Positions 2,701-54,204 of a DNA stretch of 64,000 bases are shown here, piece after piece (position 1 is the first letter of the stretch; every line of letters begins with the position of its first letter). A program made the position numbers and the translations under genes. The stretch covers positions 1,494 through 65,493 of the forward strand of contig VBID01000116.1 in the NCBI GenBank assembly GCA_005880615.1, given 5' to 3'. This DNA comes from Chloroflexota bacterium (GTDB lineage: Bacteria > Chloroflexota > Dormibacteria > CF-121). The notes under the pieces are model-generated. The model was not told the origin of the DNA. It made no database searches and saw only the letters and a list, made by a program, of their open reading frames with translations.

Positions 2701-3870
2701 ATGCAAATGCCCACTTTGTTGACGACCCTGCGCCGCTCGGGACGTCTCCCATCGATTGTGGTGGGCCTCTTGGTGCTGGCGGGCCTGGTCGGGCCGCTCC
2801 ATCTGCTGATGCCCGCTCGGGCCAAGGCGCACGCGGTCCTGCCACCGGTGGCCGTGGGCACCAGCTTCAGCCCGCTGCGCGCCGCCAACCTCGGACTCGA
2901 CTACCAGTCGGCTTTCAAACAGCTGGAGACAATGCACTTCCGCGTCATCCGGCTCTCCGCCTACTGGAACGAGGTCGACGCGTTCGGCTACGGTGACCTG
3001 GACTGGCTCACCGCCGAGGCGGAGCGGTCGGGGCAGCCGATCGTCCTCTCGGTGGGGATGAAAGGGGTGGGGTGGCCGGAGTTCTACATCCCGCCGGCGG
3101 CGTTCACGGGTCCGACCCCCGCGGCCGGCCACGACGTGACTCAGGACCCGGGGCTGCGCGACGCAGCGATGCTTTTCGTGGAGAACACGGTCGCCCGCTA
3201 TCGGCACAATCGCGCGCTCTACGCCTGGCAGATCGAAAACGAACCATTCAACCGGGCCGGCCCCTCTCACTGGTGGATCAGCCCGTCCTTTGTCAGCGAT
3301 GAGATCGAGGCCACCCGCTCGCTGGACGACCGCCACCGGCCGGTGATCGTCAATGCCTTCGGGCATTTCAACCTGTTCTTTGACCAGGCATCCAACCGGG
3401 ATGGCCTTGACCTGCGCAGCCTGCTCGGCTTCGAGGGCGACAGCGCCGAGAAGGAAAGCCTATCGGTGCTGAACCAGGGAGACATTCTCGGGCTGGACGT
3501 GTACACCGGGATCGGGTACCAGCTGATGGGCGGCAACCACTTGAGCCGGGCCGGCTCGGACTGGCCGGAGCAGATCGCTCACTGGCGCACGGTGGCCCGG
3601 GCCCAGGGCAAACAGGTGTGGATCACGGAGGCGCAGGCCGAACCGTGGGAGGCGTCGATGACCACCTATGCCAATCCCAAGAGTGTCAGCCCGGCGGCAA
3701 TCCGGACCATGTTCGGCGCGCTCAAAGACGGCGGGTACAACACCATCCTCCTCTGGGGCAGCGAGTACTGGCTCTGGCGGTCGGCGTCCGGCGATACCCA
3801 GTGGATCGACACGGTGCAGAGCATCCTGCACAGCGAGGCCCGCGCGCCATCGCTGACGCTGGTGACCTAA
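2701..3870 (+). CDS. Secreted or membrane-anchored glycoside hydrolase, GH5-like TIM barrel
   Basis: Start chosen at ATG 2701, ahead of the hydrophobic segment LLTTLRRSGRLPSIVVGLLVLAGLVG. The NEP (WQIENEP) and ITE (VWITEAQ) catalytic glutamate motifs are typical of clan GH-A. Confidence 0.6.
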   Translation: MQMPTLLTTLRRSGRLPSIVVGLLVLAGLVGPLHLLMPARAKAHAVLPPVAVGTSFSPLRAANLGLDYQSAFKQLETMHFRVIRLSAYWNEVDAFGYGDLDWLTAEAERSGQPIVLSVGMKGVGWPEFYIPPAAFTGPTPAAGHDVTQDPGLRDAAMLFVENTVARYRHNRALYAWQIENEPFNRAGPSHWWISPSFVSDEIEATRSLDDRHRPVIVNAFGHFNLFFDQASNRDGLDLRSLLGFEGDSAEKESLSVLNQGDILGLDVYTGIGYQLMGGNHLSRAGSDWPEQIAHWRTVARAQGKQVWITEAQAEPWEASMTTYANPKSVSPAAIRTMFGALKDGGYNTILLWGSEYWLWRSASGDTQWIDTVQSILHSEARAPSLTLVT

Positions 3871-3873
3871 CTA

Positions 3874-4496
3874 AAGCCCAAATCCACCGGCTCGGGCTAG
3901 CATCTTGGGCGCGGATGCGGCCTGAGCCCGAGACCGCCGGAACAAACTCGCATCTTGGGCGCGGATGCGGCCGATCCGGGCGTCGTCTCCTGCGCGCGCT
4001 CGGTCACGCATCGACGGATGCGCTCCCTCGCGTGCTCGTCGCCTCCTGCGGCTCGGCACGCCCCACATCCCAATCTGCTTCGTTCGTCCGACGGCCCCGG
4101 GCTCCCGGAGCGTCGTCTCCTGCGCGCGCTCGGTCACGCCGCGACGGATGCGCTCCCTCGCGTGCTCGTCGCCTCCTGCGGCTCGGCACGCCCCACATCC
4201 CAATCTGCTTCGTTCGTCCGACGGCCCCGGGCTCCCGGAGCGTCGTCTCCTGCGCGCGCTCGGTCACGCCGCGACGGATGCGCTCCCTTGCGTGCTCGTC
4301 GCCTCCTGCGGCTCGGCACGCCCCACATCCCAATCTGCTTCGTTCGTCCGACGGCCCCGGGCTCCCGGAGCGTCGTCTCCTGCGCGCGCTCGGTCACGCA
4401 TCGACGGATGCGCTCCCTTGCGTGCTCGTCGCCTCCTGCGGCTCGGCACGCCCCGCATCCCGATCTGCTGCGCCCGACCGGTAGATCCGGGCTTCT
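3874..4496. mobile_element. MITE-like structured repeat, copy A, with four tandem copies of an internal 130-bp unit
   Basis: Starts AAGCCCAAATCCACCGG directly after the TAA at 3868-3870 and ends ...GATCCGGGCTTCTAG. The TAG supplies the stop of the minus-strand gene that ends at 4495. The 130-bp unit CGTCGTCTCCTGCGCGCGCTCGGTCACGC... is repeated four times (~3983, 4113, 4243, 4373). Related copies lie at 19295, 22518 and 41175. Confidence 0.8.
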
Positions 4497-5772
4497 AGAA
4501 CACCGCCCAGTTCACCGTGGACAGCTGGTCGTCGGAAAAGGTCTGGCCCGGTTCCTGGAGGTAGAGGTAGCCGATCAGCCGGGTCACTCGCGGCTCCTGA
4601 AAGTAGAACTCGCGGTGCTGCTGATAGGCGCTGCTGTGGATCTGACTCGCTGTTTGCGTGCCCGCATTTTCCTCGGCGGCCAGGATCAGGTCATAGTTCT
4701 CCAGGAATCGCTTGAGACGGGAGTCGCGATAGGCGATGAGCCGCGCCGGCACATTGGTGGCCAGGTCCTGGGCGATCCGCGGAAAATCACTCCGCATGGT
4801 CTGCAGCGCACTGGGCGGTGCGCCGCGCACCTGCTCCCGGTCCAGGTCGTCGTTCAAGACCTTGAGATCAGCGGCCACCCGATCGAGGTAGGCGGACTCG
4901 GTCGGCTGCAACGTCGCCGGGGCCACATAGGGCAGTACGAGGTCGTGCAGGAAATCGAGCACCTCGTACTGCTGTTCCCCGTTGGCGGATGCGTTCGGCA
5001 GGAAGAGCGCATCGACAGGCGGGGATTGCTGGGCGCTGTACCGATAGAAGGCGACCCGGTGCGCGTTGATCAGGCGTGCCTGGGCCTGGCGCTCGGCGAG
5101 ACATTGGGACCCGAACACCGAGAGCTCCGGCCGCTGAAGAACGAATAAGCGGCCGTTCGAGTAGGCGGCCAGGGCCTCATCCCGGCTGTCCAACACGAAC
5201 GCTTCGTTCAGGAACACATCCTGCTTGGTGGCGGCCAGCGCCCGGCCCAGCGCCTCGGCGCTGGCCTGGTCAAGGGGTCGCCGACCGAAGGCATTCATTT
5301 CGAAGACATCCGGCGACGAGCGCTTCCAGCAGTGGAGTGGCGTGAACCCGGCGGTGGCCGGTGGGCAGGCGACGGCGCGTTCTCCCGACGGCTGGGCGCT
5401 GAGCGCCCCGAACGCCAGGTAGAGGGCCGCGGCCGCCACGGCTAGCCCCGCAAACGCCAGGCTCCAGAGCCGCACTACGCGTCGCCGAGGGGAAGCACCC
5501 CCACCCTGACCCTCCCCCTGAGGGGGAGGGAGATCTTGCCTGCCTCGGCGGGCGAGCGCCGTTAGGACGAGCAGGATGACCGCGGTTGGGAGGAAGAAGA
5601 GTAGGTAAGAGAAGCGCTCGAGCAGCGACGCCGCTCCGGCGGTGCAGGGCAGGCCGGGAAACTCGGCGTTGGCCTTAAAGGGCGCGATCAGCCAGGCGAC
5701 GGCGAGCAGGGCGAGCGGCCACAGCACCCACAGCCACCGGCCCAGGGAATTCCTGGTGGCTGTCCTAGTCAC
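4495..5772 (-). CDS. Hypothetical membrane or secreted protein; start uncertain (alternative GTG near 5475 gives a signal-peptide-like N-terminus)
   Basis: 425-aa ORF with two N-terminal TM helices. A REP-like element (5496-5535) lies in frame and encodes LPPPQGEGQGGGAS. Downstream of it, VVRLWSLAFAGLAVAAAALYLAFGALSA looks like a signal peptide. Confidence 0.5.
   Translation of the reverse strand: MTRTATRNSLGRWLWVLWPLALLAVAWLIAPFKANAEFPGLPCTAGAASLLERFSYLLFFLPTAVILLVLTALARRGRQDLPPPQGEGQGGGASPRRRVVRLWSLAFAGLAVAAAALYLAFGALSAQPSGERAVACPPATAGFTPLHCWKRSSPDVFEMNAFGRRPLDQASAEALGRALAATKQDVFLNEAFVLDSRDEALAAYSNGRLFVLQRPELSVFGSQCLAERQAQARLINAHRVAFYRYSAQQSPPVDALFLPNASANGEQQYEVLDFLHDLVLPYVAPATLQPTESAYLDRVAADLKVLNDDLDREQVRGAPPSALQTMRSDFPRIAQDLATNVPARLIAYRDSRLKRFLENYDLILAAEENAGTQTASQIHSSAYQQHREFYFQEPRVTRLIGYLYLQEPGQTFSDDQLSTVNWAVF
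5496..5535. repeat. REP-like palindromic element, copy 2 (inside the ORF 4495..5772)
   Basis: CACCCCCACCCTGACCCTCCCCCTGAGGGGGAGGGAGATC. Confidence 0.75.
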
Positions 5773-7076: not shown

Positions 7077-7089
7077 AGGCCCTCGCCCC

Positions 7090-7134
7090 GAGACCCCCTC
7101 CCCTGCCCCTCCCCGCAAGGGGGAGGGAGAAATC
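7090..7134. repeat. REP-like palindromic element, copy 3
   Basis: GAGACCCCCTCCCCTGCCCCTCCCCGCAAGGGGGAGGGAGAAATC, nearly identical to copy 1. Confidence 0.8.
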
Positions 7135-12504: not shown

Positions 12505-12520
12505 CGGACGACTAGCTTAG

Positions 12521-12754
12521 TTAGACTCGCCGCTCCTCCGTGGGCAGCTTTCGGACCCAGGCCCGCAGGCGCGCTGGGGCCTCGTCCTGGCAGCACTCCT
12601 TGCGGACCAGTCGCTTCAGGCCAGCCTGCAGCTCAAAGATCTGCAGACAGGGCGGGCAGTCGTCCAGGTGCCGCTGCACCTCTCCCAGTTCGCCGGCGGT
12701 CAGCTCCCGGTCGACGAAGGCGTTCAGCTGGTCGCCGCATTCGTTGCAGTTCAC
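12521..12754 (-). CDS. Anti-sigma factor, ZAS family (RsrA-like)
   Basis: 77 aa. HLDDCPPC matches the H-x3-C-x2-C zinc-binding ZAS motif. Overlaps the sigma factor gene by 4 nt. Confidence 0.8.
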   Translation of the reverse strand: MNCNECGDQLNAFVDRELTAGELGEVQRHLDDCPPCLQIFELQAGLKRLVRKECCQDEAPARLRAWVRKLPTEERRV

Positions 12755-18856: not shown

Positions 18857-18984
18857 AGAAACCTCCAGGGAAGTAATGACCGCTGGAGGCCGATCGGAGT
18901 GCAAACAAAAAGCTCCCAATCCTTCCGAAGGGGAGCCGAAGATGTTGTGTGCATCTCCCTCTCAGCCTCGAAGAGGGTCGACGT

Positions 18985-19135
18985 CGAATCCCGGCAGGCA
19001 GGTCTCCTGGCTTCTGGATCGGCGCACCTCGCGACTCCTTCCCAAGGCCTTCGCCTCAGTGGACCGCTGTCGGAGGGCTCCCCAGTCACAGTGACGGGTT
19101 CGCGCCGGAATCGCACCGGCTTCCCTTTTCAGCTC
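18985..19135 (-). promoter_or_regulatory. Cobalamin (B12) riboswitch in the leader of the ECF/DUF4430 operon
   Basis: The minus strand reads AAGGGAAGCCGGTGCGATTCCGGCGCGAACCCGTCACTGTGACTGGGGAGCC ... AAGCCAGGAGACCTGCCTGCC. This matches the conserved GGGAA/GGTG-AATCC/CCCG-ACTGT core and the B12 box (AGCCAGGAGACCTGCC). Confidence 0.8.
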
Positions 19136-19294
19136 GTGTGAGCCACCTGTCGAGCTATTCAGTTGTGTGACCGACGACAGGCACCACCTCCCCTTCCATT
19201 GAGAGCCGGCCTTGTAAGGGCGCCATTATATCCCCTCCGGAAACGAAAACGCCGGCCGTTGGGCCGGCGTTCAACCGTAGGCGCTGATCGATTC

Positions 19295-19655
19295 AAGCCC
19301 GAATCCACCGAGTCGAACTTGCATCTTGGGCGCGGGACGAGCGATCGGTGCGTCGTCTCCTGCGCGCGCTCAGTTACGCACCGACGGGTGCGCGCCTTCG
19401 CGTGCTCGTCGCCTCCTGAAGCCCGAATCTACCGGCTCGAGCTAGCATCTCGGGTGCGGATGCGGCCGATCCGGGCGTCGTCTCCTGCGCGCGTTCAGTC
19501 ACGCATCGACGGATGCGCTCCTTCACGTGCTCGTCGCCTCCTTCGGCTCGGCACGCCCCTCATCCCGATCTGCGGCGCCCGACCGGTAGATCCGGGCTCC
19601 GCTCATCTCGCCCCGCATCCCAATCTGCGTCGTCCGATCGGTGGATCCGGGCTAG
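19295..19655. mobile_element. MITE-like structured repeat, copy B (duplicated 5' module, two partial internal units)
   Basis: Starts AAGCCCGAATCCACCGAGTCGAACTTGCATCTTGGGCGCGG and ends GGTGGATCCGGGCTAG. The terminal TAG is the stop of the minus-strand ORF 19652..20065. Confidence 0.8.
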
Positions 19656-22395: not shown

Positions 22396-22419
22396 GGCTC
22401 GCCCCGCATAAAAGAAGAA

Positions 22420-22438
22420 GGCCGCGTGGGGCGCGGCC
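22420..22438 (+). terminator. Hairpin GGCCGCGTGGGGCGCGGCC followed by TT, putative terminator of the PNP-like gene
   Basis: Perfect 7-bp GC stem 25 nt after the stop codon. Confidence 0.45.
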
Positions 22439-22517
22439 TTCGAAGGGGAGGAGGGGGGTCGATGTACTGCGCACGATGAGGCTAGCAGTGGGCACTTACG
22501 GACGGTCTAACAAGCCT

Positions 22518-22708
22518 GAGCCCGAATCTATCGATCGAGCTTCCATCTCGGGCGCATGCGGCCTGAGCCCGAGGCGCTCCGGGCGTCGTCTCCTGTACGC
22601 GTTCGGTCACGCATCGACGGATGCGCTCCCTCCCGTGCTCGTCGCCTCCTGCGGCTCGGCACGCCCCGCCTCCCGATTAGCGGCGCCCGGCCGATAGATC
22701 CGGGCTTT
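22518..22708. mobile_element. MITE-like structured repeat, copy C (single internal unit)
   Basis: GAGCCCGAATCTATCGATCGAGC ... GATAGATCCGGGCTTTAGG. The 3' terminus overlaps the stop (TAA, minus strand) of the TPR gene. Confidence 0.8.
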
Positions 22709-23411
22709 AGGCGGCTTTGCGATTTCGGCGCGCCCGCTTCCTGTGGTTGGCAAGATCCTGTAACGCTTTGTCGATCAAGCGGTCCGCGGGGTCCAGATGT
22801 TTGGCATCCAGCAATACTCCCTGGGCGGCGACCACGTCGTCGTGCTGCAGGTAGGCCAGCCCCAGCTGCAGTGCCAGCCCGGCATCCGTTCGGGTCGCCT
22901 GCACCGCAGCCTTCAGGTATGGCAGCGCCTCCTGCGGGCGGCCGATCTCGAGCAGCAACGAGCCCAGCTCGGCCAGCACGTCGGGCTGGTCGGGAATAAT
23001 GGCCAGCGCCCGCCGGTAGGCGGCCTGCGCGACCTCCGCCCGACCCAGCTGACGATGCTGCCGGCCGATGAGGAACCACGTTTGCCAGCCGGCTGGCGCC
23101 AGCGCCATGGTCCGTCCGTAGGAGGCCGCGGCGGCGGTCCGGTCGCCCAGGGCGTCGCAGGCGGCACCCAACCGGAAGGCGATATCAGGATCGTTGGGGT
23201 CGAGCCCGGCCGCCCGCTCCAGCAGCTGGCGGGCGCGCTCGTAGTCGCGCAGCCGGTGGCAGAGTGTTCCGAGCCGCAGGGCGGGCGTGGCCGCATCGGG
23301 CGCGCTCTTGACCGCCGCCTCGTAACGGATCAATGCCTCGCGGACGTTTCCCGCGGACTCGGCCGTCAGTCCGCTTTCCAGAAGGCGCTCGACTTCGGTG
23401 ACCGCGGCCAT
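22707..23411 (-). CDS. TPR-repeat protein
   Basis: Start set at MAAVTEVERLLESG, giving 235 aa. Multiple TPR-like helical repeats (AxxYxxALxxxP patterns). Confidence 0.6.
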   Translation of the reverse strand: MAAVTEVERLLESGLTAESAGNVREALIRYEAAVKSAPDAATPALRLGTLCHRLRDYERARQLLERAAGLDPNDPDIAFRLGAACDALGDRTAAAASYGRTMALAPAGWQTWFLIGRQHRQLGRAEVAQAAYRRALAIIPDQPDVLAELGSLLLEIGRPQEALPYLKAAVQATRTDAGLALQLGLAYLQHDDVVAAQGVLLDAKHLDPADRLIDKALQDLANHRKRARRNRKAA

Positions 23412-28847: not shown

Positions 28848-28969
28848 CGGCACGGATTCGCTTGGCCTGCCTCGTCGATTCAGAAATATTGGACGGCTGC
28901 TGCGAGTTCTAGCCGCTCGGCGTCACTTGGATTCTGAGCCCAGCGCCGGCGGCCATAGGTAGAGCAGGA

Positions 28970-28998
28970 GTGTAGCCCGTGGCGGATACTAATCGAAC
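28970..28998. repeat. Degenerate copy of the tRNA-Glu 3' end (attR-like remnant R1)
   Basis: GTGTAGCCCGTGGCGGATACTAATCGAAC, against the + strand reading of the tRNA 3' end TGGTAGCCCGTAGCGGATTCGAACC. A 9-bp hairpin GAGCCCGGC-CGTT-GCCGGGCTC follows at 29008-29029. Confidence 0.65.
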
Positions 28999-29048
28999 AA
29001 TGAGGTTGAGCCCGGCCGTTGCCGGGCTCTTCTCATGACCGACTGAGG

Positions 29049-29610: not shown

Positions 29611-29655
29611 GTGGTAGCCCGTGGCGGACACTAAATCGAACGACACTAACCGAAC
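29611..29655. repeat. Degenerate copy of the tRNA-Glu 3' end (R2) with a partial internal duplication
   Basis: GTGGTAGCCCGTGGCGGACACTAAATCGAAC followed by GACACTAACCGAAC. Confidence 0.65.
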
Positions 29656-29824
29656 TGAATCGCCCTGGGTTTCGTGGAGACTCAGGGGTGGACGAAAGTC
29701 TCTCCGATCCCCTTTCGTAGCCTTAGCCTTCGGGGCTTTCGGGTATTTCGGATGCGGCTCCTGCGGCTTGGGGCGCGGCTTGCGAGGTTCGGCACGGACG
29801 AATCTTAGGCCCTGATCGTCGGAG

Positions 29825-29854
29825 TGGTAGCCCGTTGCGGAGACCAAATCGCAT
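29825..29854. repeat. Degenerate copy of the tRNA-Glu 3' end (R3)
   Basis: GTGGTAGCCCGTTGCGGAGACCAAATCGCA. With R2 it delimits a 185-bp module with no gene. Confidence 0.6.
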
Positions 29855-30717: not shown

Positions 30718-30751
30718 CGGTTAAGTAGCCCCTGGCGGACACTAATCGAAC
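30718..30751. repeat. Degenerate copy of the tRNA-Glu 3' end (R4), including the 7 nt that flank the real tRNA
   Basis: CGGTTAAGTAGCCCCTGGCGGACACTAATCGAAC. The GGTTAAGT prefix is identical to the sequence immediately outside the tRNA at 31488-31495. Confidence 0.65.
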
Positions 30752-30951
30752 ATTTGAATTGGGGCTGGTCTCGAAAAACCCGCCGTAAACGGTCTGCGCA
30801 CATCAGCCAAGTGCTCAGAGCATGGCAACCACGCACCTCGTCCTTCCTCTGGCCCACTGATGCTCGCCGCGCGTTGTGAGGGTTATAAGCGGTGCGTGCG
30901 CGGGAGCGGATTTACGGGGGAACTTTCGGAGCTTCGTAGCGTTATAGGAAT

Positions 30952-31495: not shown

Positions 31496-31573
31496 TGGTA
31501 GCCCGTAGCGGATTCGAACCGCTGATTTCTGCCTTGAGAGGGCAGCGTCCTGGGCCAGCTAGACGAACGGGCC
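31496..31573 (-). tRNA. tRNA-Glu (anticodon CTC)
   Basis: The reverse complement reads GGCCCGTTCGTCTAGCTGGCCCAGGACGCTGCCCTCTCAAGGCAGAAATCAGCGGTTCGAATCCGCTACGGGCTACCA. It is co-linear with E. coli tRNA-Glu. Anticodon stem CTGCC/GGCAG, loop CTCTCAA, TTCGAAT T-loop, 7-bp acceptor stem and an encoded CCA. Confidence 0.85.
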
Positions 31574-34244: not shown

Positions 34245-34286
34245 CGTAAGCCCGATCCGTGGCTCGGCGAGAGCCTCTCGAAATAC

Positions 34287-34324
34287 CCCCACCCTACCCT
34301 CCCCGCCGGGAGGAGGGAGATTTA
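34287..34324. repeat. REP-like palindromic element, copy 4
   Basis: CCCCCACCCTACCCTCCCCGCCGGGAGGAGGGAGATTT. Confidence 0.75.
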
Positions 34325-37387: not shown

Positions 37388-38995
37388 CTAGATCCCGCTG
37401 TGCCAGACGGTGGAACCCAGGACGTGGATCCAGGTGAGCCCGGTGTCCAGCGTGATCGGGTCCCCGTCCGGCGTGTAGTAGGCCGCCGGCACGTCGGGGT
37501 CGGCATGCTGCCAAGTGGCGTGGATCACGATGCCATTGACGTAGACCTCGGCCGGCCCCTCCCCGGTCAACTCGTAAGCCTCCGTGTGGTAGCAGTGCCC
37601 CATGGAGCAGAAGGTGTTGGCGGGATTGGTGTCCAGGAAGGAGGTCACGTGCTCCACGATGACCGTCTTGGCGTGCACCTGGCCCGTCCCCATATTGATC
37701 ATGGGCGCCCCGTCCTGCCACTTCAGGTATTCCTTCCGGACCGGGTCGTATTTCCAGACCGCGTCCTGGTCCGGGACGATGATGGCCGTCGCCGGGTCCC
37801 CGCTATGGGCGGCATCGTCGTGCTTGGGCGCGATTTCGTACAGGGGCCCCGGCACGTTCTTCGCCGCGGCGAAGTTGGTGGCATTGGCCCCGTGGATCAT
37901 CACGTTGTGGGGCGCCCACCGGTCGGGCGTCCGGAAGAAGACGTTGCCCTGGCCGTAGCTGAAGTCGTTGACCAGGTCCGGGTGCTGCCAGACCTTGCCC
38001 AGGACGTAGTCGTTGGCTCCGGAGCAGTAGATGAAGCCCTTGTACATCAGCTCCAGCCGGATGGTGATCAGGCGGCAGCTGCGAATGGGGCCGACCAGGA
38101 CCGGCAGGGGGTGCCAGTACACGGCCGTCAGGCGTGGCACGGACCCTTCGCTCAGGTACTCATAGATCATGTCGGCTTGCTGCATGCCGGCTTGCGGCCG
38201 CGCGTCCAGGCTGTTTTCGATCTGCATCAGGATGGGCGCTCCCGACCCAATCCGGCTGGGGTCGCCGGCCGACGGAACCTCCAGGACGGTGGTGAAGCTC
38301 AGCGTCCAGTCCGCCAGGAACGGATCGTGCTTGCGGTTGAGCGCTTGCTGCGACACCCCCAGCACGTAGGGCTTGCTGTGCTTGAGGGTCAGATCCAGAG
38401 TGGCGGTGAGCCCGTCGCCGGACCACTGCACCTGGCCGGCTGGCACCGGCTTGCTGTCCAGCAGGAGGGGCGTGCGGACGCTGTCCATCGCCTGAGTGAA
38501 GGCGATGGCCAGCTTGCCGTGCACCGGGACGAACTGGGCCGCATCTTTGAGCGGCTGATTATCAAATCGGACGGCGGCCACCGTGGGCGCCGCCTCGGTC
38601 CGAAACGTCAAGCTCCGGGTGACGGTGCCGCTCCCGGAGGCCTCCCTGGCTCCGGTGAGCACCACGTGGTAGGTGGTCTCAGGCGTCATGGTGGGGGAGA
38701 ACTGGAACTCGCGCGGGCTCACCGTGGCGAAGGTCACCGGGACCGACGGCGTCATGGTGAAGCCCTGCTGGACTGAACTGGCCAGCATGTCCTTGTTGAA
38801 CTTGAAGTCGATACTCGCCGTCCGGGCGACGGCCTGGTCCCCGTCGGCGACGTTGGCGCTGACTTCCAGCGGCATGGTCAGCAGCCGGACGACGGCCGCC
38901 AGTCCGACCAGGACCAGCGGGATCACCCCCACCCACCACCGACGGCGCGCACCCTGCGCCAGGCTTATTGATCCGATCCGATGACGTGAACCCAT
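37388..38995 (-). CDS. DUF3048 (YerB-like) family secreted or membrane-anchored protein with N-terminal Ig-like region, paralog A
   Basis: 535 aa. Conserved blocks PRLTAVYWHP, GPIRSCRLIT, YCSGAND, APHNVMI and GTGQVHAKTVIVEHV are shared with the adjacent paralog and typical of DUF3048. Confidence 0.6.
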   Translation of the reverse strand: MGSRHRIGSISLAQGARRRWWVGVIPLVLVGLAAVVRLLTMPLEVSANVADGDQAVARTASIDFKFNKDMLASSVQQGFTMTPSVPVTFATVSPREFQFSPTMTPETTYHVVLTGAREASGSGTVTRSLTFRTEAAPTVAAVRFDNQPLKDAAQFVPVHGKLAIAFTQAMDSVRTPLLLDSKPVPAGQVQWSGDGLTATLDLTLKHSKPYVLGVSQQALNRKHDPFLADWTLSFTTVLEVPSAGDPSRIGSGAPILMQIENSLDARPQAGMQQADMIYEYLSEGSVPRLTAVYWHPLPVLVGPIRSCRLITIRLELMYKGFIYCSGANDYVLGKVWQHPDLVNDFSYGQGNVFFRTPDRWAPHNVMIHGANATNFAAAKNVPGPLYEIAPKHDDAAHSGDPATAIIVPDQDAVWKYDPVRKEYLKWQDGAPMINMGTGQVHAKTVIVEHVTSFLDTNPANTFCSMGHCYHTEAYELTGEGPAEVYVNGIVIHATWQHADPDVPAAYYTPDGDPITLDTGLTWIHVLGSTVWHSGI

Positions 38996-40560
38996 GTCAG
39001 CCCCGTGTTGAGATCGACGGGGTTGCCATCGGGCCCGTAGTAGACGACGGGTACAGTCCGATCAGGGTGGCGCCATGTGGCATGAATCACTCCTCCGTCT
39101 GAATAGATTTCGGCCGAGCCCTCCCCAGCGAGCTCGTAGTACTCGGTGTAGTAGTGGTGGAAGAAGTTCCCCGGGGTGGTGTCGATGCGTGAGCGGACGT
39201 GTTCGACGATGACGGTCTTGGCATGGACCTGGCCGGTCCCTGCGTTGGTAAAGGGGGCACCGTCCTGCCATTTGAAATACTCCTTGGCGCTGGCGTTGTA
39301 GCGCCAGATGGCGCCGTGCTGGGGCAGTGCGATGTCGGTGGCCGGGACGGCGCCCGGCAGCGGCGCATCCGGGTGCGCGGGGGCCACATCGTAGGGCAAA
39401 GGCCCCAGGGCGGCGGCCGTGCGCTGGGTGACCTGGTCCGGCCGGGCCATCACGTTGTGCGGCGCGGCTCGCGCATCCGTCCGGAACATGATGGGCAGCC
39501 AGTAGGCGTAGTCATACACGATGTTCGGATACTTCCAGACCTGGCCCAGCACGAAATCGTTGGCGCCAGAACAGTAGATCATGCCGTGGTACATCTGCTC
39601 CAGCTGGACCGTGATCAGGCGGCAGCTGCGGACCGGCCCGATCAAGCTGGTCGGAGGATGCCAGTAAACTGCGGTCAGGCGAGGAATGCCGTACTCGCTG
39701 ATGTACTCGTAGATCATGTCGGCCTGCTGCATCCCCGATTGCGGGCGGACGGTTGGCTGGCCGCTGTTCTCGATCTGGATGATCACCGGGCCATAGCCGC
39801 TCCCAATCCGGGCCGTGGAGCCCGCGGAGGGGACCTGGATCATGGTGGTGAATCCAACCTTCCAATCCGCGAGCAGCGGGTCGTGCCGGCGGTTCAACGC
39901 CTGCTGGGGGACCGAAACCGAGTGGAGCCGACTGTGGGCCAGGCTGATCGGAACCGAGGCCGTGGTGGAGGTGGGATCCCAGCGGATGCTAGTCGCGTCG
40001 ACCGGCGCGCCGTCGACCAGGATGGGCACGTGGCTGGCATCCATCGGTTGGGAGAAGGTAATGGCCAGCGTGCCGCGCAGCGGCACCGCCTGCTGTCCAT
40101 CCGAAAGCGGCGCTCCTTCCAGGCTCAGCCCGGTGATCTTGGGCGCCGGTTCGGTGTGAAAGCTGAACGCATAGGTGAGCCCGCCCAAACCGATCGCCTT
40201 CCGCAGCCCGGCCAGGTGAACGTGGTAGGTGGTGTCTGGCTCCAGTTGGGGCTTAAACAGGAAGTGGCGGGGATTGATCTGGGCGAGGGTGAAGGGCGCG
40301 GCGGGGTCGATGCTGACGCCCTGCCGCACCGATGGTTCGTTCATGTCCTGGTTGAAGGTGAAGTCGATGGCGGTGGTGCGGGCCACCTGCTGATCGCCAT
40401 CCGGAACGGTAGCGCCGACTGACAGCGGGGCCGTGGCGGTCCGCGCCCCGACCACCAGGACGGCGGCGAGCAGCGCCAGGGGGAGCAGCCACCAGCGACG
40501 GCGAAGGCGTTGGGTGAGGATCGGCGGAAACCGGGGCATCGAATCTCTGGAAGGGTACAC
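38965..40560 (-). CDS. DUF3048 (YerB-like) family protein, paralog B (overlaps paralog A by 31 nt)
   Basis: 531 aa, about 55-60% identical to paralog A with the same conserved blocks. Confidence 0.6.
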   Translation of the reverse strand: MYPSRDSMPRFPPILTQRLRRRWWLLPLALLAAVLVVGARTATAPLSVGATVPDGDQQVARTTAIDFTFNQDMNEPSVRQGVSIDPAAPFTLAQINPRHFLFKPQLEPDTTYHVHLAGLRKAIGLGGLTYAFSFHTEPAPKITGLSLEGAPLSDGQQAVPLRGTLAITFSQPMDASHVPILVDGAPVDATSIRWDPTSTTASVPISLAHSRLHSVSVPQQALNRRHDPLLADWKVGFTTMIQVPSAGSTARIGSGYGPVIIQIENSGQPTVRPQSGMQQADMIYEYISEYGIPRLTAVYWHPPTSLIGPVRSCRLITVQLEQMYHGMIYCSGANDFVLGQVWKYPNIVYDYAYWLPIMFRTDARAAPHNVMARPDQVTQRTAAALGPLPYDVAPAHPDAPLPGAVPATDIALPQHGAIWRYNASAKEYFKWQDGAPFTNAGTGQVHAKTVIVEHVRSRIDTTPGNFFHHYYTEYYELAGEGSAEIYSDGGVIHATWRHPDRTVPVVYYGPDGNPVDLNTGLTWVHVIGSDQ

Positions 40561-41032: not shown

Positions 41033-41174
41033 GGCATGAACCCCCTTCCGGCTTGCCTTGTTGTCTCACCTTGACGCTGGCATAGAACTTGATAGCTAGC
41101 ATAGTACCAAACACGAAACCCCTGTCAAGGGTTTGGTATCTACAGAAAGTCCGCGGGTGAAGTTGGCTCCCCCT

Positions 41175-41354
41175 TAGCCCGAATCCACCGAGTCGAACTA
41201 GCATCTTGGGCGCGGGACGAGCGATCGGGGCGTGTCTCCTGCGCGCGCTCGGTTACGCACCGACGGGTGCGCGCCCTCGCGTGCTCGTCGCCTCCTTCCG
41301 CTCATCTCGCCCCGCATCCCAATCTGCGTCGTCCGATCGGTGGGTCCGGGCTTA
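41175..41354. mobile_element. MITE-like structured repeat, copy D (minimal ~180-bp form)
   Basis: TAGCCCGAATCCACCGAGTCGAACTAGCATCTTGGGCGCGGG ... GGTGGGTCCGGGCTTAGG. The 3' end overlaps the TAA stop of the minus-strand MerR gene. Confidence 0.8.
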
Positions 41355-45055: not shown

Positions 45056-46966
45056 ATGAATCTGTTTCGCCGCCGCCAACCGCCCGCCTCCGGTGGCCTC
45101 CCCGACTGGCGGATCGGGCTGGCGGTGGGCGCCGGGGCGGTGGCCGCCACCGCCCTGGCGTTCGTCATCGCCACGGCTACCGGGTCCACCCGGTCCATCT
45201 GGAATCAGCCTCAGACCCCCATCGGCGATGTCCTGAACCGGGTTGACGCCGGGCAGGTCAAGAGCGCCGTCATCACCGGCGAGCGCGTCGTCCTGACCGA
45301 TCGCAAAGGCGCCACCTTCTGGACCCAGAAGGAAAGCGGGACGGCGATCGCCGACGAACTGCGCCAGCATGGGGTGCAGGTCAGCGTTGCCCCCGGCGAC
45401 TCCTCCGACCTGGTGCGGACCCTGCCCAACCTGGTGGGGCTGCTCCTGCTGGTGGCGCTGGTGTTCCTGCTCCTGCGCCGGTCCAACCTGCTGGGGAGCC
45501 CGATGGGCGCCTTCTCCAAGCACCTGCGGGAGGCCGGCCGGGAATCGTCCGCGGTCGTCACCTTCGCCGAGGTGGCGGGCGTGGACGAGGCCAAGCAGGA
45601 GCTGGAAGAGGTCGTTCGATTTCTCCGGACGCCCGCCGGCTTTCGCGAGCTGGGGGCGCGCATGCCGCGCGGCGTGCTCCTGATCGGCCCCCCCGGGACT
45701 GGCAAGACGTTGCTGTCGCGAGCCGTGGCCGGCGAGGCCGGGGTGCCCTATTTCTCCCTCAGCGGGTCCGACTTCGTGGAGATGTTCGTCGGGGTGGGAG
45801 CGGCGCGGGTCCGGGACCTGTTCCGCCACGCCAAGAAGCACGCCCCCTGCATCATCTTCATCGACGAGATCGATGCCCTGGGTCGGAAGCGCGGGGCATC
45901 GTTCGGGCGCACCAACGAGGAGCGAGAACAAACCCTCAACCAGCTGCTGGTGGAGATGGACGGCTTCCACACCGACGAGGCGGTGGTCGTGGTGGCGGCC
46001 ACCAACCGGCCCGACGTGCTGGATCCGGCCTTGCTCCGATCCGGCCGCTTCGACCGACGGGTGGCCATCGAGTCCCCCGACATCAACGGGCGGCGCGCCA
46101 TCCTCGCCCTGTACGCGCGCGCGAAACCGTTGTCGCCCGAGATCGACCTGGAGGTGATCGCCCGGCAGACGCCGGGGTTCACGGGGGCGGACCTGGCCAA
46201 CCTGCTGAACGAGGCGGCCATCCTGGCCGCCCGGGGCGGCAAGCGGGTGATCGGCCGCAGCGAGATGGAAGAGGCCGCCTTTCGGGTGATGGCGGGGCCC
46301 GAGAAGCGCAGCCGGATCCTCACCCCGGAGGAGAAGGCCATCGTTGCCTACCACGAGGTGGGCCATGCGCTCTGCATGAAGTCGATCGCCAAGAGCGACC
46401 CGGTCCATAAGGTTTCCATCGTGGCCCGCGGCCAGGCGCTGGGCGTGACCGTGCAGCTGCCGAGACGCGATCGCTATCTCACCTCGAAGTCCGAATTGCA
46501 GGCCCGGATGGTGGCGGCCATGGGCGGTCGGGCGGCCGAAGAGATCATCTTCGGCGATGCCACCACCGGGGCGAAGCAGGACATCGAGGTCGCCACCAGC
46601 ATCGCCCGGCACATGGTGTGTGAGTTCGGGATGAGCGAGCGGCTGGGCCTGGTCACCCTGCGCGCCCGCGACGATGATGACTCGCCGCTGATCTCGGAGC
46701 TGACCGCTGAGGACGTGGACGCGGAGGTGAAGGCGCTGATCGACGCGGCGTACCGGCAGGCGGTGCAGATCCTGCAGGAGAAGCGCGCCATCCTGGTCCA
46801 AATCGCGGAACATCTGCAGCAGGTGGAGACCATTGATGGGGCCGAGCTGGATGGCCTCCTCGCCTCGGACCCGGCGGCCATGCCGAGGCTGCCGGAGCGG
46901 CGGATGCCGGTCGAGGAGTCTGGTCGGGGCGCGCAGGTCGCGGCGGCGGAAGCCGACCAGGCCTAG
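45056..46966 (+). CDS. ftsH: ATP-dependent zinc metalloprotease FtsH
   Basis: N-terminal TM helices, AAA module ([18 protein letters not shown] region) and the M41 peptidase HEVGHAL zinc motif. Confidence 0.9.
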
Positions 46967-46990
46967 CCCGAATCTACCGGCTTCCTCTAG
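46964..46990. repeat. Short remnant of the MITE-like element (terminal repeat only)
   Basis: TAGCCCGAATCTACCGGCTTCCTCTAG. It supplies the TAG stop of ftsH and the CTA (TAG) stop of the minus-strand MerR gene. Confidence 0.55.
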
Positions 46991-48134: not shown

Positions 48135-48488
48135 ATGGAGCAGACCGTGGACAAGACTGTGGAGCGTCTGAGCGAGATCCTGGACCGCGCCACCAAGGCG
48201 GCTAGCGACCTGGAGCTGAAGGACCGGCTGGGCGACGCGGTGTCAGCCCTGCGCCGGACCCGGCTGCGGCAACCCGATGAGGATGCGGGGATCGAACGCT
48301 TTGTCACCGGGTTGCTGCTCGGGGTGGGCATCGGTTTTGGCCTGGCCCTCTTGCTGGCCCCCAAGAGCGGCGAGGAGATGCGGGAAGACCTGATGCAGCG
48401 GGGGATCGAGCTCCGGGACCGGGCCAGCGGTCTGGCCGCGCGGGTGCCGTTCGGCGACGGCGGCGAAAAGACCCCCAGCGAGTCCTAG
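48135..48488 (+). CDS. YtxH-like (DUF948) general-stress protein
   Basis: GLLLGVGIGFGLALLLAPKSGEEMREDLMQRG is the YtxH signature. Confidence 0.6.
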   Translation: MEQTVDKTVERLSEILDRATKAASDLELKDRLGDAVSALRRTRLRQPDEDAGIERFVTGLLLGVGIGFGLALLLAPKSGEEMREDLMQRGIELRDRASGLAARVPFGDGGEKTPSES

Positions 48489-48512
48489 CCCGAATCCCGG
48501 CTTAGCCCGATC
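48487..48512. repeat. Minimal remnant of the MITE-like element (terminal repeat pair, no core)
   Basis: TAGCCCGAATCCCGGCTTAGCCCGATCC directly after the stop codon at 48488. Confidence 0.45.
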
Positions 48513-52227: not shown

Positions 52228-52575
52228 ATGGCAACTGCCGTCCAACCAGAGACCCGCCGTGATGTCAGCATCTCCCTGGACAAGCCGATCTACACCATCA
52301 GCGTCGCGTCGGAGATCCTGGAAACGCATCCCCGGACGCTCATGATGTACGAGCACCTCGGCCTGGTGGTACCCAAGCGGACGTCCACCAACCGGCGCCG
52401 CTTCTCCCAGCGGGACGTCATGAAATTGCAGACCATCCAGAAGCTGACCCGGCACCACTCGGTCAACCTGGCCGGCGTGCGCTACATCCTGAAGCTACTC
52501 AAGCTGCTGCACGAGAACCGGATTGCCCCGCCGGTCGAGCTCAAAGACATCGACGTGTCCCGGCTGGAAGTCTAG
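52228..52575 (+). CDS. MerR-family regulator, HspR-like, paralog 4
   Basis: Start at MATAVQPETRR with AAGGAG 11 nt upstream. DKPIYTISVASEILETHPRTLMMYEHLGLVVPKRTSTNRRRFSQRDVMKLQTIQKLTRHHSVNLAGVRYIL. Confidence 0.75.
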   Translation: MATAVQPETRRDVSISLDKPIYTISVASEILETHPRTLMMYEHLGLVVPKRTSTNRRRFSQRDVMKLQTIQKLTRHHSVNLAGVRYILKLLKLLHENRIAPPVELKDIDVSRLEV

Positions 52576-53162: not shown

Positions 53163-53497
53163 CCACCCGCCGCGCCCCGGCCGAGGCCAGCCTGTCCCTG
53201 GACAAGCCCATCTACACCATCAGCGTGGCGTCCGAAATCCTGCAAACGCATCCCCGGACGTTGATGATGTACGAGCACCTGGGGCTGGTGATTCCCAAGC
53301 GAACCTCGACCAACCGGCGCCGGTTTTCGCAGCGCGACATCCGCAAGCTGCAGGCCATCCAGACGCTGACCCGGGTGCACGGCGTTAATCTGAACGGCGC
53401 TCGCTACATCCTGCGGCTGCTGCGCATCCTGCAGGACAACGGGCTGACCGGGCCCTCGGAATTGCGCGACCTCGACGTCCGCGAACTCGACGTATAG
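53147..53497 (+). CDS. MerR-family regulator, HspR-like, paralog 5 (overlaps the receiver gene end by 16 nt)
   Basis: TTG start assumed. LDKPIYTISVASEILQTHPRTLMMYEHLGLVIPKRTSTNRRRFSQRDIRKLQAIQTLTRVHGVNLNGARYIL. Confidence 0.7.
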   Translation: MAKGVTTRRAPAEASLSLDKPIYTISVASEILQTHPRTLMMYEHLGLVIPKRTSTNRRRFSQRDIRKLQAIQTLTRVHGVNLNGARYILRLLRILQDNGLTGPSELRDLDVRELDV

Positions 53498-53532
53498 CCG
53501 GGATCGGGGCCAGCCCCGAATCGGGCTCAGCC
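53495..53532. repeat. Remnant related to the MITE terminal repeats (TAGCCGGGATC + palindrome AGCCCCGAATCGGGCT)
   Basis: Begins with the TAG stop of MerR paralog 5. It resembles the element's 3' TIR, followed by a hairpin like the one in the 5' module of copy A. Confidence 0.4.
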
Positions 53533-54113: not shown

Positions 54114-54160
54114 CCCTACGGTTCGCTTCCCTGGGTCGAGGCTCCAGCCTCGCGAAATGC

Positions 54161-54204
54161 CCCCACCCTACCCTCCCCGCAAGGGCAAGGGGGAGGGAGA
54201 TTCA
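54161..54204. repeat. REP-like palindromic element, copy 6 (GCAAGG duplicated in the loop region)
   Basis: CCCCCACCCTACCCTCCCCGCAAGGGCAAGGGGGAGGGAGATTC. Confidence 0.75.

Follow-up and report, generated by a model that had tools for sequence, protein, structure and literature searches.

A recently active family of hairpin-forming, probably MITE-like repeats at gene ends of uncultured soil Chloroflexota

The window analysed here, a stretch of 64,000 nucleotides with a G+C content of 67% from a 65.5-kb soil-metagenome scaffold (ENA ERZ28573622, CRIT18-1 scaffold_74), contains a GC-rich repeat of about 180 bp in four full or composite copies, along with no fewer than four short remnants, or roughly one element per 10–16 kb. 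The family unit of about 177 bp has GCCC at one end and GGGC at the other and folds as a long imperfect hairpin, and we regard the repeats as probably being non-autonomous, non-coding MITE-like DNA transposons. The family is recently active, dispersed, and polymorphic between closely related strains, in support of a preliminary description that had proposed a mobile, non-coding, multi-copy family with terminal inverted repeats. It is new for uncultured soil Chloroflexota, and while its kind is ordinary, the part that stays conserved is unusual.

A profile built from the window copies gave nhmmer matches at 3874–4494, 19295–19653, 22517–22707 and 41174–41353, with E values between 1e-28 and 1e-56, confirming all four of the full copies described previously. 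The 11-mer AGCCCGAATCC occurred 11 times in the window when up to one mismatch was allowed, compared to 1.9 occurrences expected, and none of 100 shuffled sequences had as many. The ends of the family are imperfect inverses of each other, 5' (T/A)AGCCCGAATCCACCG... and 3' ...CGGTGGATCCGGGCT(T/A), and in every copy the terminal inverted repeats are complementary for 25 nt or more. The four copies in the window, all of which lie in one orientation, are as follows:

3873–4496 (nhmmer 3874–4494), plus strand: composite copy A, from nhmmer and reading of the sequence; it consists of a standard 5' module (3875–3922), a variant full element (3923–4103), three more 130-nt units, and a standard 3' end reaching to 4494
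3976–4469, plus strand: tandem array of copy A (TRF: 130 bp x 3.8 copies, 97% matches, score 925)
19294–19655, plus strand: composite copy B, in which nhmmer matched profile positions 2–125, 2–181 and 127–181 in succession
22517–22709, plus strand: unit copy C, about 190 nt (nhmmer E 7e-52), between the stop of a TPR gene and a terminator-like hairpin
41174–41354, plus strand: unit copy D, 177 nt with TTA on each side (nhmmer E 1.6e-52, and reading of the sequence)

Within copy A, separate matches were obtained at 3874–3921, 3923–4103, 4107–4233, 4237–4363 and 4367–4494, and the same architecture was present at the unrelated loci L056, L082, L073, L043 and L035 (the prefix L denotes loci outside the window). 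The tandem array that had been described in this copy is real, although it comprises 3.8 copies of the 130-bp unit with 97% matches rather than four perfect ones. The number of units differs by locus in a VNTR-like manner, with two to three units in L107, L135, L090, L112, L150 and L163, and such arrays may expand and contract through slippage or unequal recombination. Copy B, in which TRF reports a 125-bp duplication, had been interpreted as carrying a duplicated 5' module, but the succession of nhmmer matches reveals instead an element nested inside an element, with a full element (19419–19598) between the two halves (19296–19417 and 19599–19653) of a second one. This nested composite recurs in L001 (95% identity over 359 nt, with different flanks), L138, L109, L136 and L144/L156. 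Composites A and B were found at 90–96% identity in contigs with unrelated flanks, and therefore move as units.

Presence or absence at orthologous sites, a comparison suggested in the preliminary description, favours mobility, as both filled and empty sites were found. At two sites, a related locus has an element where the window has none:

12516–12521, no strand: empty site in the window; L143 is filled with a full element, and the flanks are 97% identical
22407–22408, no strand: empty site in the window, by a terminator tail; L168 is filled with a full element

In L143, a 179-nt element is flanked by positions 1–363 and 541–1348, and the corresponding DNA of the window is contiguous; both of these window-anchored insertion events have imprecise junctions, 1 nt off. 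Clean pairs of filled and empty sites were seen in L104/L138 (TAA), L192/L177 (YTA) and L110/L157 (TTA), and more than ten other filled/empty orthologous pairs occur among the related loci.

The insertions are associated with a direct duplication of three base pairs. With the element defined as GCCC...GGGC, identical triplets flanked 19 of 59 de-duplicated copies (TTA/TTA in 10, TAA/TAA in eight, and TGA/TGA in one), whereas 5000 permutations gave 6.9 on average and 15 at most. None of these 59 copies had the inverted combination TTA/TAA, which indicates a true duplication rather than inverted repeats that reach further outward. Copies with a perfect duplication had C at position -1 in 17 of 20 cases and G at position +1 in 17 of 20, giving the target C-TWA-G. 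The perfect duplication is kept in just about one third of the copies, and the nested copy B is located at a non-TWA site. The preliminary description had recommended a search for target-site duplications and had proposed TA/CTAG targeting, as in IS630-derived MITEs; a duplication does exist, but it is a direct one of 3 bp, TTA/TTA or TAA/TAA, and not TA. We also considered a TA duplication model with AGCCC...GGGCT ends, which fails on one side in each triplet class. The style of duplication is IS5/PIF-Harbinger-like, not IS630-like. The preferred target of PIF is palindromic and contains CTTAG. Precedents for a 3-bp duplication of TTA/TAA are found in PIF/Harbinger elements and Tourist MITEs (PMC2213677), and the IS5-family element IS1237 is a further precedent for TTA/TAA duplication (PMC2516522).

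The placement of the copies at gene ends is explained by this target, because C-TWA-G carries a stop on each strand, TAA on one and TAG on the other. The window contains 255 TWA sites, approximately half of the number expected from composition, with 157 within ORFs, 14 representing TAA stops, and 84 in intergenic DNA. Among 51 elements, a gene reads into the element at 35 ends, and about two thirds of these genes have their stop no more than 5 nt from the triplet. It had been claimed previously that the element termini donate the stop codons of their neighbours, and this is true of some of the genes named. The stops of ORF 19652, ftsH and a YtxH-like gene (48135–48488) overlap the terminal base(s) of an element, with the ftsH stop TAG (46964–46966) overlapping the first bases of a remnant at 46964–46985, and the MerR stop, a TAA on the minus strand, is itself the right-hand TTA triplet of copy D (offset 0). 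The claim did not hold for the TPR stop (22707–22709, minus strand), which starts 1 nt beyond copy C, or for the neighbours of copy A, whose stops at 3868–3870 and 4495–4497 lie 4–5 and 2 nt outside the element. Target preference and selection suffice for the gene-end pattern, and a special "stop-codon donation" is unneeded. Pfam searches confirmed the TPR, MerR and FtsH assignments; the "GH5-like" and "membrane" labels given to two other proteins were not upheld, as neither has a Pfam match.

Two hairpins lie downstream of copies in the window:

22417–22441, minus strand: terminator-like hairpin downstream of copy C, from the terminator scan
19240–19269, minus strand: GC hairpin ending in a T-rich tail, downstream of copy B, read directly and missing from the list of the terminator scan

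The hairpin beyond copy C means that this copy belongs to the TPR gene's 3' UTR. Each of copies B, C and D is bounded by a stop codon on one side and a terminator-like hairpin on the other, and is therefore part of a 3' UTR; for copy B, the terminator is probably the hairpin at 19240–19269. Directly to the left of copy B, and upstream of a minus-strand operon, is a cobalamin riboswitch (18980–19165, minus strand; 114 bits in the Rfam scan). Among the 57 called genes of the window with a stop, TAG (25) is more frequent than TGA (18) and TAA (14), an unusual order at 67% G+C, and the excess of TAG may be linked to CTWAG insertions that reshape gene ends.

We propose that a transposase supplied in trans would cut with a 3-bp stagger, as do the enzymes of the IS5 family (IS427/IS1031 type) and of PIF/Harbinger. 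With TWA being rare in a genome of 67% GC and mostly intragenic, the tolerated targets would be stop codons and the A/T-rich stretch from stop to terminator. The duplication would preserve the host stop codon, so that copies would pile up at gene ends and be co-transcribed in 3' UTRs, and insertion junctions would recreate CTWAG, favouring adjacent or nested insertions such as composite B. Propagation appears to require paired arms and an invariant central core, and not a particular terminal sequence.

Copies also appear to be lost by decay. The remnants in the window are:

46964–46985, plus strand: deletion remnant that fuses the beginning of the 5' arm to the final bases of the 3' arm (from the L147 orthologue)
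48486–48512, plus strand: terminal-repeat relic, a short palindromic TIR-TIR at the stop of the YtxH-like gene (sequence reading)
53495–53532, plus strand: two terminal-repeat-type mini-palindromes, AGCCGGGATCGGGGC and AGCCCCGAATCGGGCT (sequence reading)
34247–34265, approximate coordinates, minus strand: 3'-end relic (GAGCCACGGATCGGGCTTA); in the related contig L125 the element is complete here

The first of these remnants had been noted previously and is confirmed by the L147 orthologue, which has at least 166 nt of the full element at this site, including the 3' portion, in a flank that is 93% identical, where the window keeps just TAGCCCGAATCTACCGGCT downstream of ftsH. Because L147 holds the full element there, the relic can be identified as a deletion product joined at a CCGG microhomology. 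The terminal-only remnants reported earlier at 48487–48512 and 53495–53532 are present in the form of short palindromic TIR-TIR relics. The former is missing from the L147 orthologue, and the latter are similar to TTA-GCCCGAATCCGGGC-TTA mini-elements that lie beside full copies in L064 and L104/L138. The L168 orthologue of copy C has a 98-nt internal deletion. Decay may proceed via microhomology deletion between both arms, which would leave palindromic relics of approximately 15–30 bp.

The repeats are non-coding. Long ORFs running through them, which the preliminary description considered artefactual, have no Pfam match, and the 130-nt tandem period, not being a multiple of 3, breaks any reading frame. 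A protein-coding core was rejected, as the candidate short ORFs show non-synonymous variation and frame-breaking indels. Rfam returned nothing relevant to the repeats, either in a gathering scan of the whole window or in scans of copy D and L061 at E<=5. A search for a full-length IS with the terminal inverted repeats of the family, also recommended previously, found no autonomous element with matching termini, either in the window or across the 1.38 Mb of related loci; this search, which covered inverted terminal-repeat pairs 0.3–4 kb apart, repeated segments of 0.6–3.5 kb and split 5'/3' halves, yielded nothing beyond chance pairs, orthologous segments and nested composites. Under our main explanation, an autonomous partner would be expected to bear GCCCGAATCC ends and to encode a DDE transposase.

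Copy D folds at -94.9 kcal/mol on the plus strand (z -4.3) and at -109 kcal/mol on the minus strand (z -8.8), and standard pairs occupy 97.9% of pair cells across 35 copies. Compensatory changes affected both sides of 17 of 51 pairs, compared to 7.8 in shuffles (0/500), and both sides of 10 of the 18 pairs in the terminal helix, indicating that the ends are kept complementary rather than kept in sequence. The fold was better as the G-rich strand in 38 of 38 copies and in 20 of 20 sister elements, and the stronger folding of the minus strand may simply reflect G-richness.

The sister elements, about 30 of which were found in Dormibacterota and other Chloroflexota, match the centre of the profile only, and form hairpins of similar size. 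Their termini are unrelated to those of the window family, many resembling TA-GTGTCCCG...CGGGACAC-TA, apparently with TA duplicated in a YTAG context, and TA may be the duplication in sister families with GTG...CAC ends. All of them carry a 66-nt core, GTCGnCTCCTGCGCGCGCTCGGTCACGCATC-loop-GATGCGCTCCCTCGCGTGCTCGTCGCCTCCT, whose stems covary, whose apical loop is variable, and whose single-stranded CUCCU/AGGAG runs are invariant. Among 20 elements the core is approximately 90% identical, compared to 44–56% for the arms, and the arms of the window family and of the sister elements are 31–42% identical, while the ends of every element are complementary to each other at 21–25 of 30 positions. In a classical MITE, the transposase reads the termini, which are the most conserved part; here the centre is conserved and the ends are free, which is the reverse. 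These identities, together with termini that vary by compensatory substitution, speak against our main explanation, because a conserved centre with compensatory termini is unexpected if a transposase reads the terminal sequence. Counting against it as well are the failure to find an autonomous element in the loci searched, the minority of copies with a perfect duplication, the imprecise junctions of the two window-anchored events and the non-TWA site of nested copy B. It is conceivable, though in our view doubtful, that the 66-nt core forms the key functional part of a mobile element, found in Chloroflexota and Dormibacterota, of a kind not described before. The core may be the recognition module of a structure-dependent transposition that does not read the termini, or it may be a functional RNA or protein-binding module that spreads with hairpins of different termini (TWA type and TA type). 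If the centre-conserved pattern does reflect mobilisation, it would represent an undescribed mode of small-DNA movement or a mobile structured RNA. A literature search with the core sequence gave only one unrelated paper. In a Dormibacteraceae MAG (L071, 1700–1760), 13 nt from the end of the neighbouring pyrH gene reappear in the left arm of a sister element, with TGGGACGTGAGGC occurring twice in tandem, and the right arm is the complement of the left arm, suggesting that arms may at times be copied from flanking host DNA.

Structure-dependent mobility, in which an HUH single-strand transposase or a recombinase would read the core and stem and not the termini, would mean that these are not classical DDE MITEs. 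We consider this unlikely, although the conserved core, the divergent arms (31–56%), the complementarity of each element's own ends, and the excess of compensatory pairs all point towards it, as does a sister family that appears to duplicate TA and not TWA. Also on this side, 46 of 70 locus clusters have a positive GC skew in their flanks when these are read in the orientation of the element (p=0.012), which hints weakly at an orientation bias with respect to replication or transcription. However, DDE enzymes typically leave such a clean direct duplication of 3 bp at a palindromic target, a combination that is not known for HUH transposons. The co-orientation of neighbouring elements, 25:4 in the raw counts, fell to 8:4 and was not significant once orthologous contigs were collapsed, and no candidate enzyme was found in the window and related loci. 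Orientation bias is also not specific, as a replication-related bias has been reported for many ordinary IS families (PMC3971601).

It is also possible that selection acts on a structured RNA or protein-binding module encoded by the core, such as a 3'-UTR stabiliser, RNase target, regulator or ribozyme, with the hairpin as its vehicle or with copies kept by the host; we think this quite improbable. Copies B, C and D must be transcribed, given their position between stop and terminator-like hairpin, and the fold z-scores of -4.3 and -8.8, the uniformly better folding of the G-rich strand, and the covarying stems and invariant single-stranded runs of the core are consistent with an RNA. The orientation of the elements with respect to the genes reading in is nevertheless even (18 left versus 17 right), co-directional contexts are weakly biased (24 versus 11), and private stem mutations show an excess of the wobble-preserving type on one strand that is not significant (A.C 23 versus G.T 16). 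The lack of any Rfam match weighs in the same sense, and the presence/absence and relic decay seen between close strains speak against a host function for each copy. Finally, hairpin-forming copies at gene ends might be immobile, vertically inherited structures (REP-like terminators) homogenised by gene conversion, but this is very improbable and is contradicted by the insertion polymorphisms, with filled and empty orthologous sites at 93–97% flank identity, by the direct duplications, and by identical composites in unrelated contexts and different MAGs.

Our preferred reading of the family as MITE-like transposons can be compared to several known systems. Tourist-like MITEs, PIF/Harbinger elements and relatives of IS5 (IS427/IS1031 type, IS1237) have short terminal inverted repeats and non-autonomous derivatives at high copy number, as does the Chloroflexota family, and they share with it the 3-bp TTA/TAA duplication (PMC2213677; PMC2516522). 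They differ from the Chloroflexota family in that the latter yielded no cognate transposase in the window and related loci, its termini are not the conserved part, and the entire element folds as a single long hairpin whose centre is conserved. The Correia/NEMIS elements of Neisseria, ERIC and RUP are 100–200 bp in length, hairpin-forming, intergenic and co-transcribed, with a TA-containing target duplication and strain polymorphism, and these features are held in common; however, they duplicate TA and keep their termini, whereas the Chloroflexota family duplicates TWA and is very GC-rich. BOX in pneumococcus and MIRU in mycobacteria are modular, with variable internal tandem units and a gene-end or operon position overlapping stop codons. 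They resemble the Chloroflexota family in this modular tandem build and gene-end position, but are without clear target duplications or the hairpin-with-core anatomy, and are unlike it in sequence. REP/REPIN sequences, mobilised by RAYT, are extragenic palindromes with compensatory stem changes, like the Chloroflexota family, and a structure-reading single-strand enzyme of the RAYT type would be a possible analogue for structure-dependent mobility. Target duplication is absent from REPs. REPs are reported to be 20–40 bp in length, with GTAG/CGTC tags (PMC3733652). Membership of the Chloroflexota element in this group was rejected, as it is about 180 bp long, has a 3-bp duplication, and has no GTAG/CGTC tag.

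The family is large, with at least 139 full-length copies, at least 115 of them distinct, in 198 sequences among the matches listed, and a metagenome scan found at least 113 soil contigs with the element. An invariant 20-mer, compared to one genome per species, gave real matches only in a MAG labelled Candidatus Limnocylindria (Chloroflexota), which has dozens of loci, many at contig ends, in an 'Eisenbacteria' MAG from the same study, and in several Dormibacterota/Chloroflexi MAGs. Matches of the 20-mer in Alphaproteobacteria, Flavobacterium, Planctomycetota, Cohnella and others were due to chance, with similarity absent around them, and there was no match to the element in viral contigs and plasmids. 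Chloroflexota-type elements are carried by L002, L015, L018 and others (DASQAY01, 'Eisenbacteria', with many elements) and by L031 (DASPYG01, 'Nitrosopolaris', a thaumarchaeon), and these may be mis-binned or mislabelled contigs.

The elements are frequent in soil Chloroflexota that are abundant and uncultured, and have practical consequences for the study of these genomes. They break short-read assemblies, with many copies lying at contig ends, give rise to long ORFs that are spurious, and make gene ends and stops hard to call. They also put a very stable hairpin into many 3' UTRs, and their insertions and tandem repeats can serve as markers to tell close strains apart.

Other repeats were also present in the window. 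A second intergenic family consists of hairpins of about 46 nt, CCCCTCCCC..GCAA..GGGGGAGGGAGA, at 1577–1622, 5488–5533, 7085–7130, 34275–34320 and 54149–54194, with two copies 98% identical and similar sequences in L155, L145, L141 and L136; the copy at 34275 shares its intergenic gap with a relic of the main family. Beside tRNA-Glu (31496–31573, minus strand), four partial copies of its 3' end, of about 24 nt (28969–28999, 29611–29641, 29824–29851 and 30722–30752), separate single small accessory genes (RibD_C, SnoaL, DinB_2 and one unknown) in a stretch of lower G+C (0.617). This stretch looks like the serial integration of tiny islets at the tRNA, but no integrase was seen there. Diverged direct repeats of about 270 nt, 74–78% identical, occur in neighbouring genes at 52261–52532 and 53183–53454 and at 37937–38200 and 39484–39747, and both pairs are probably tandem paralogues.
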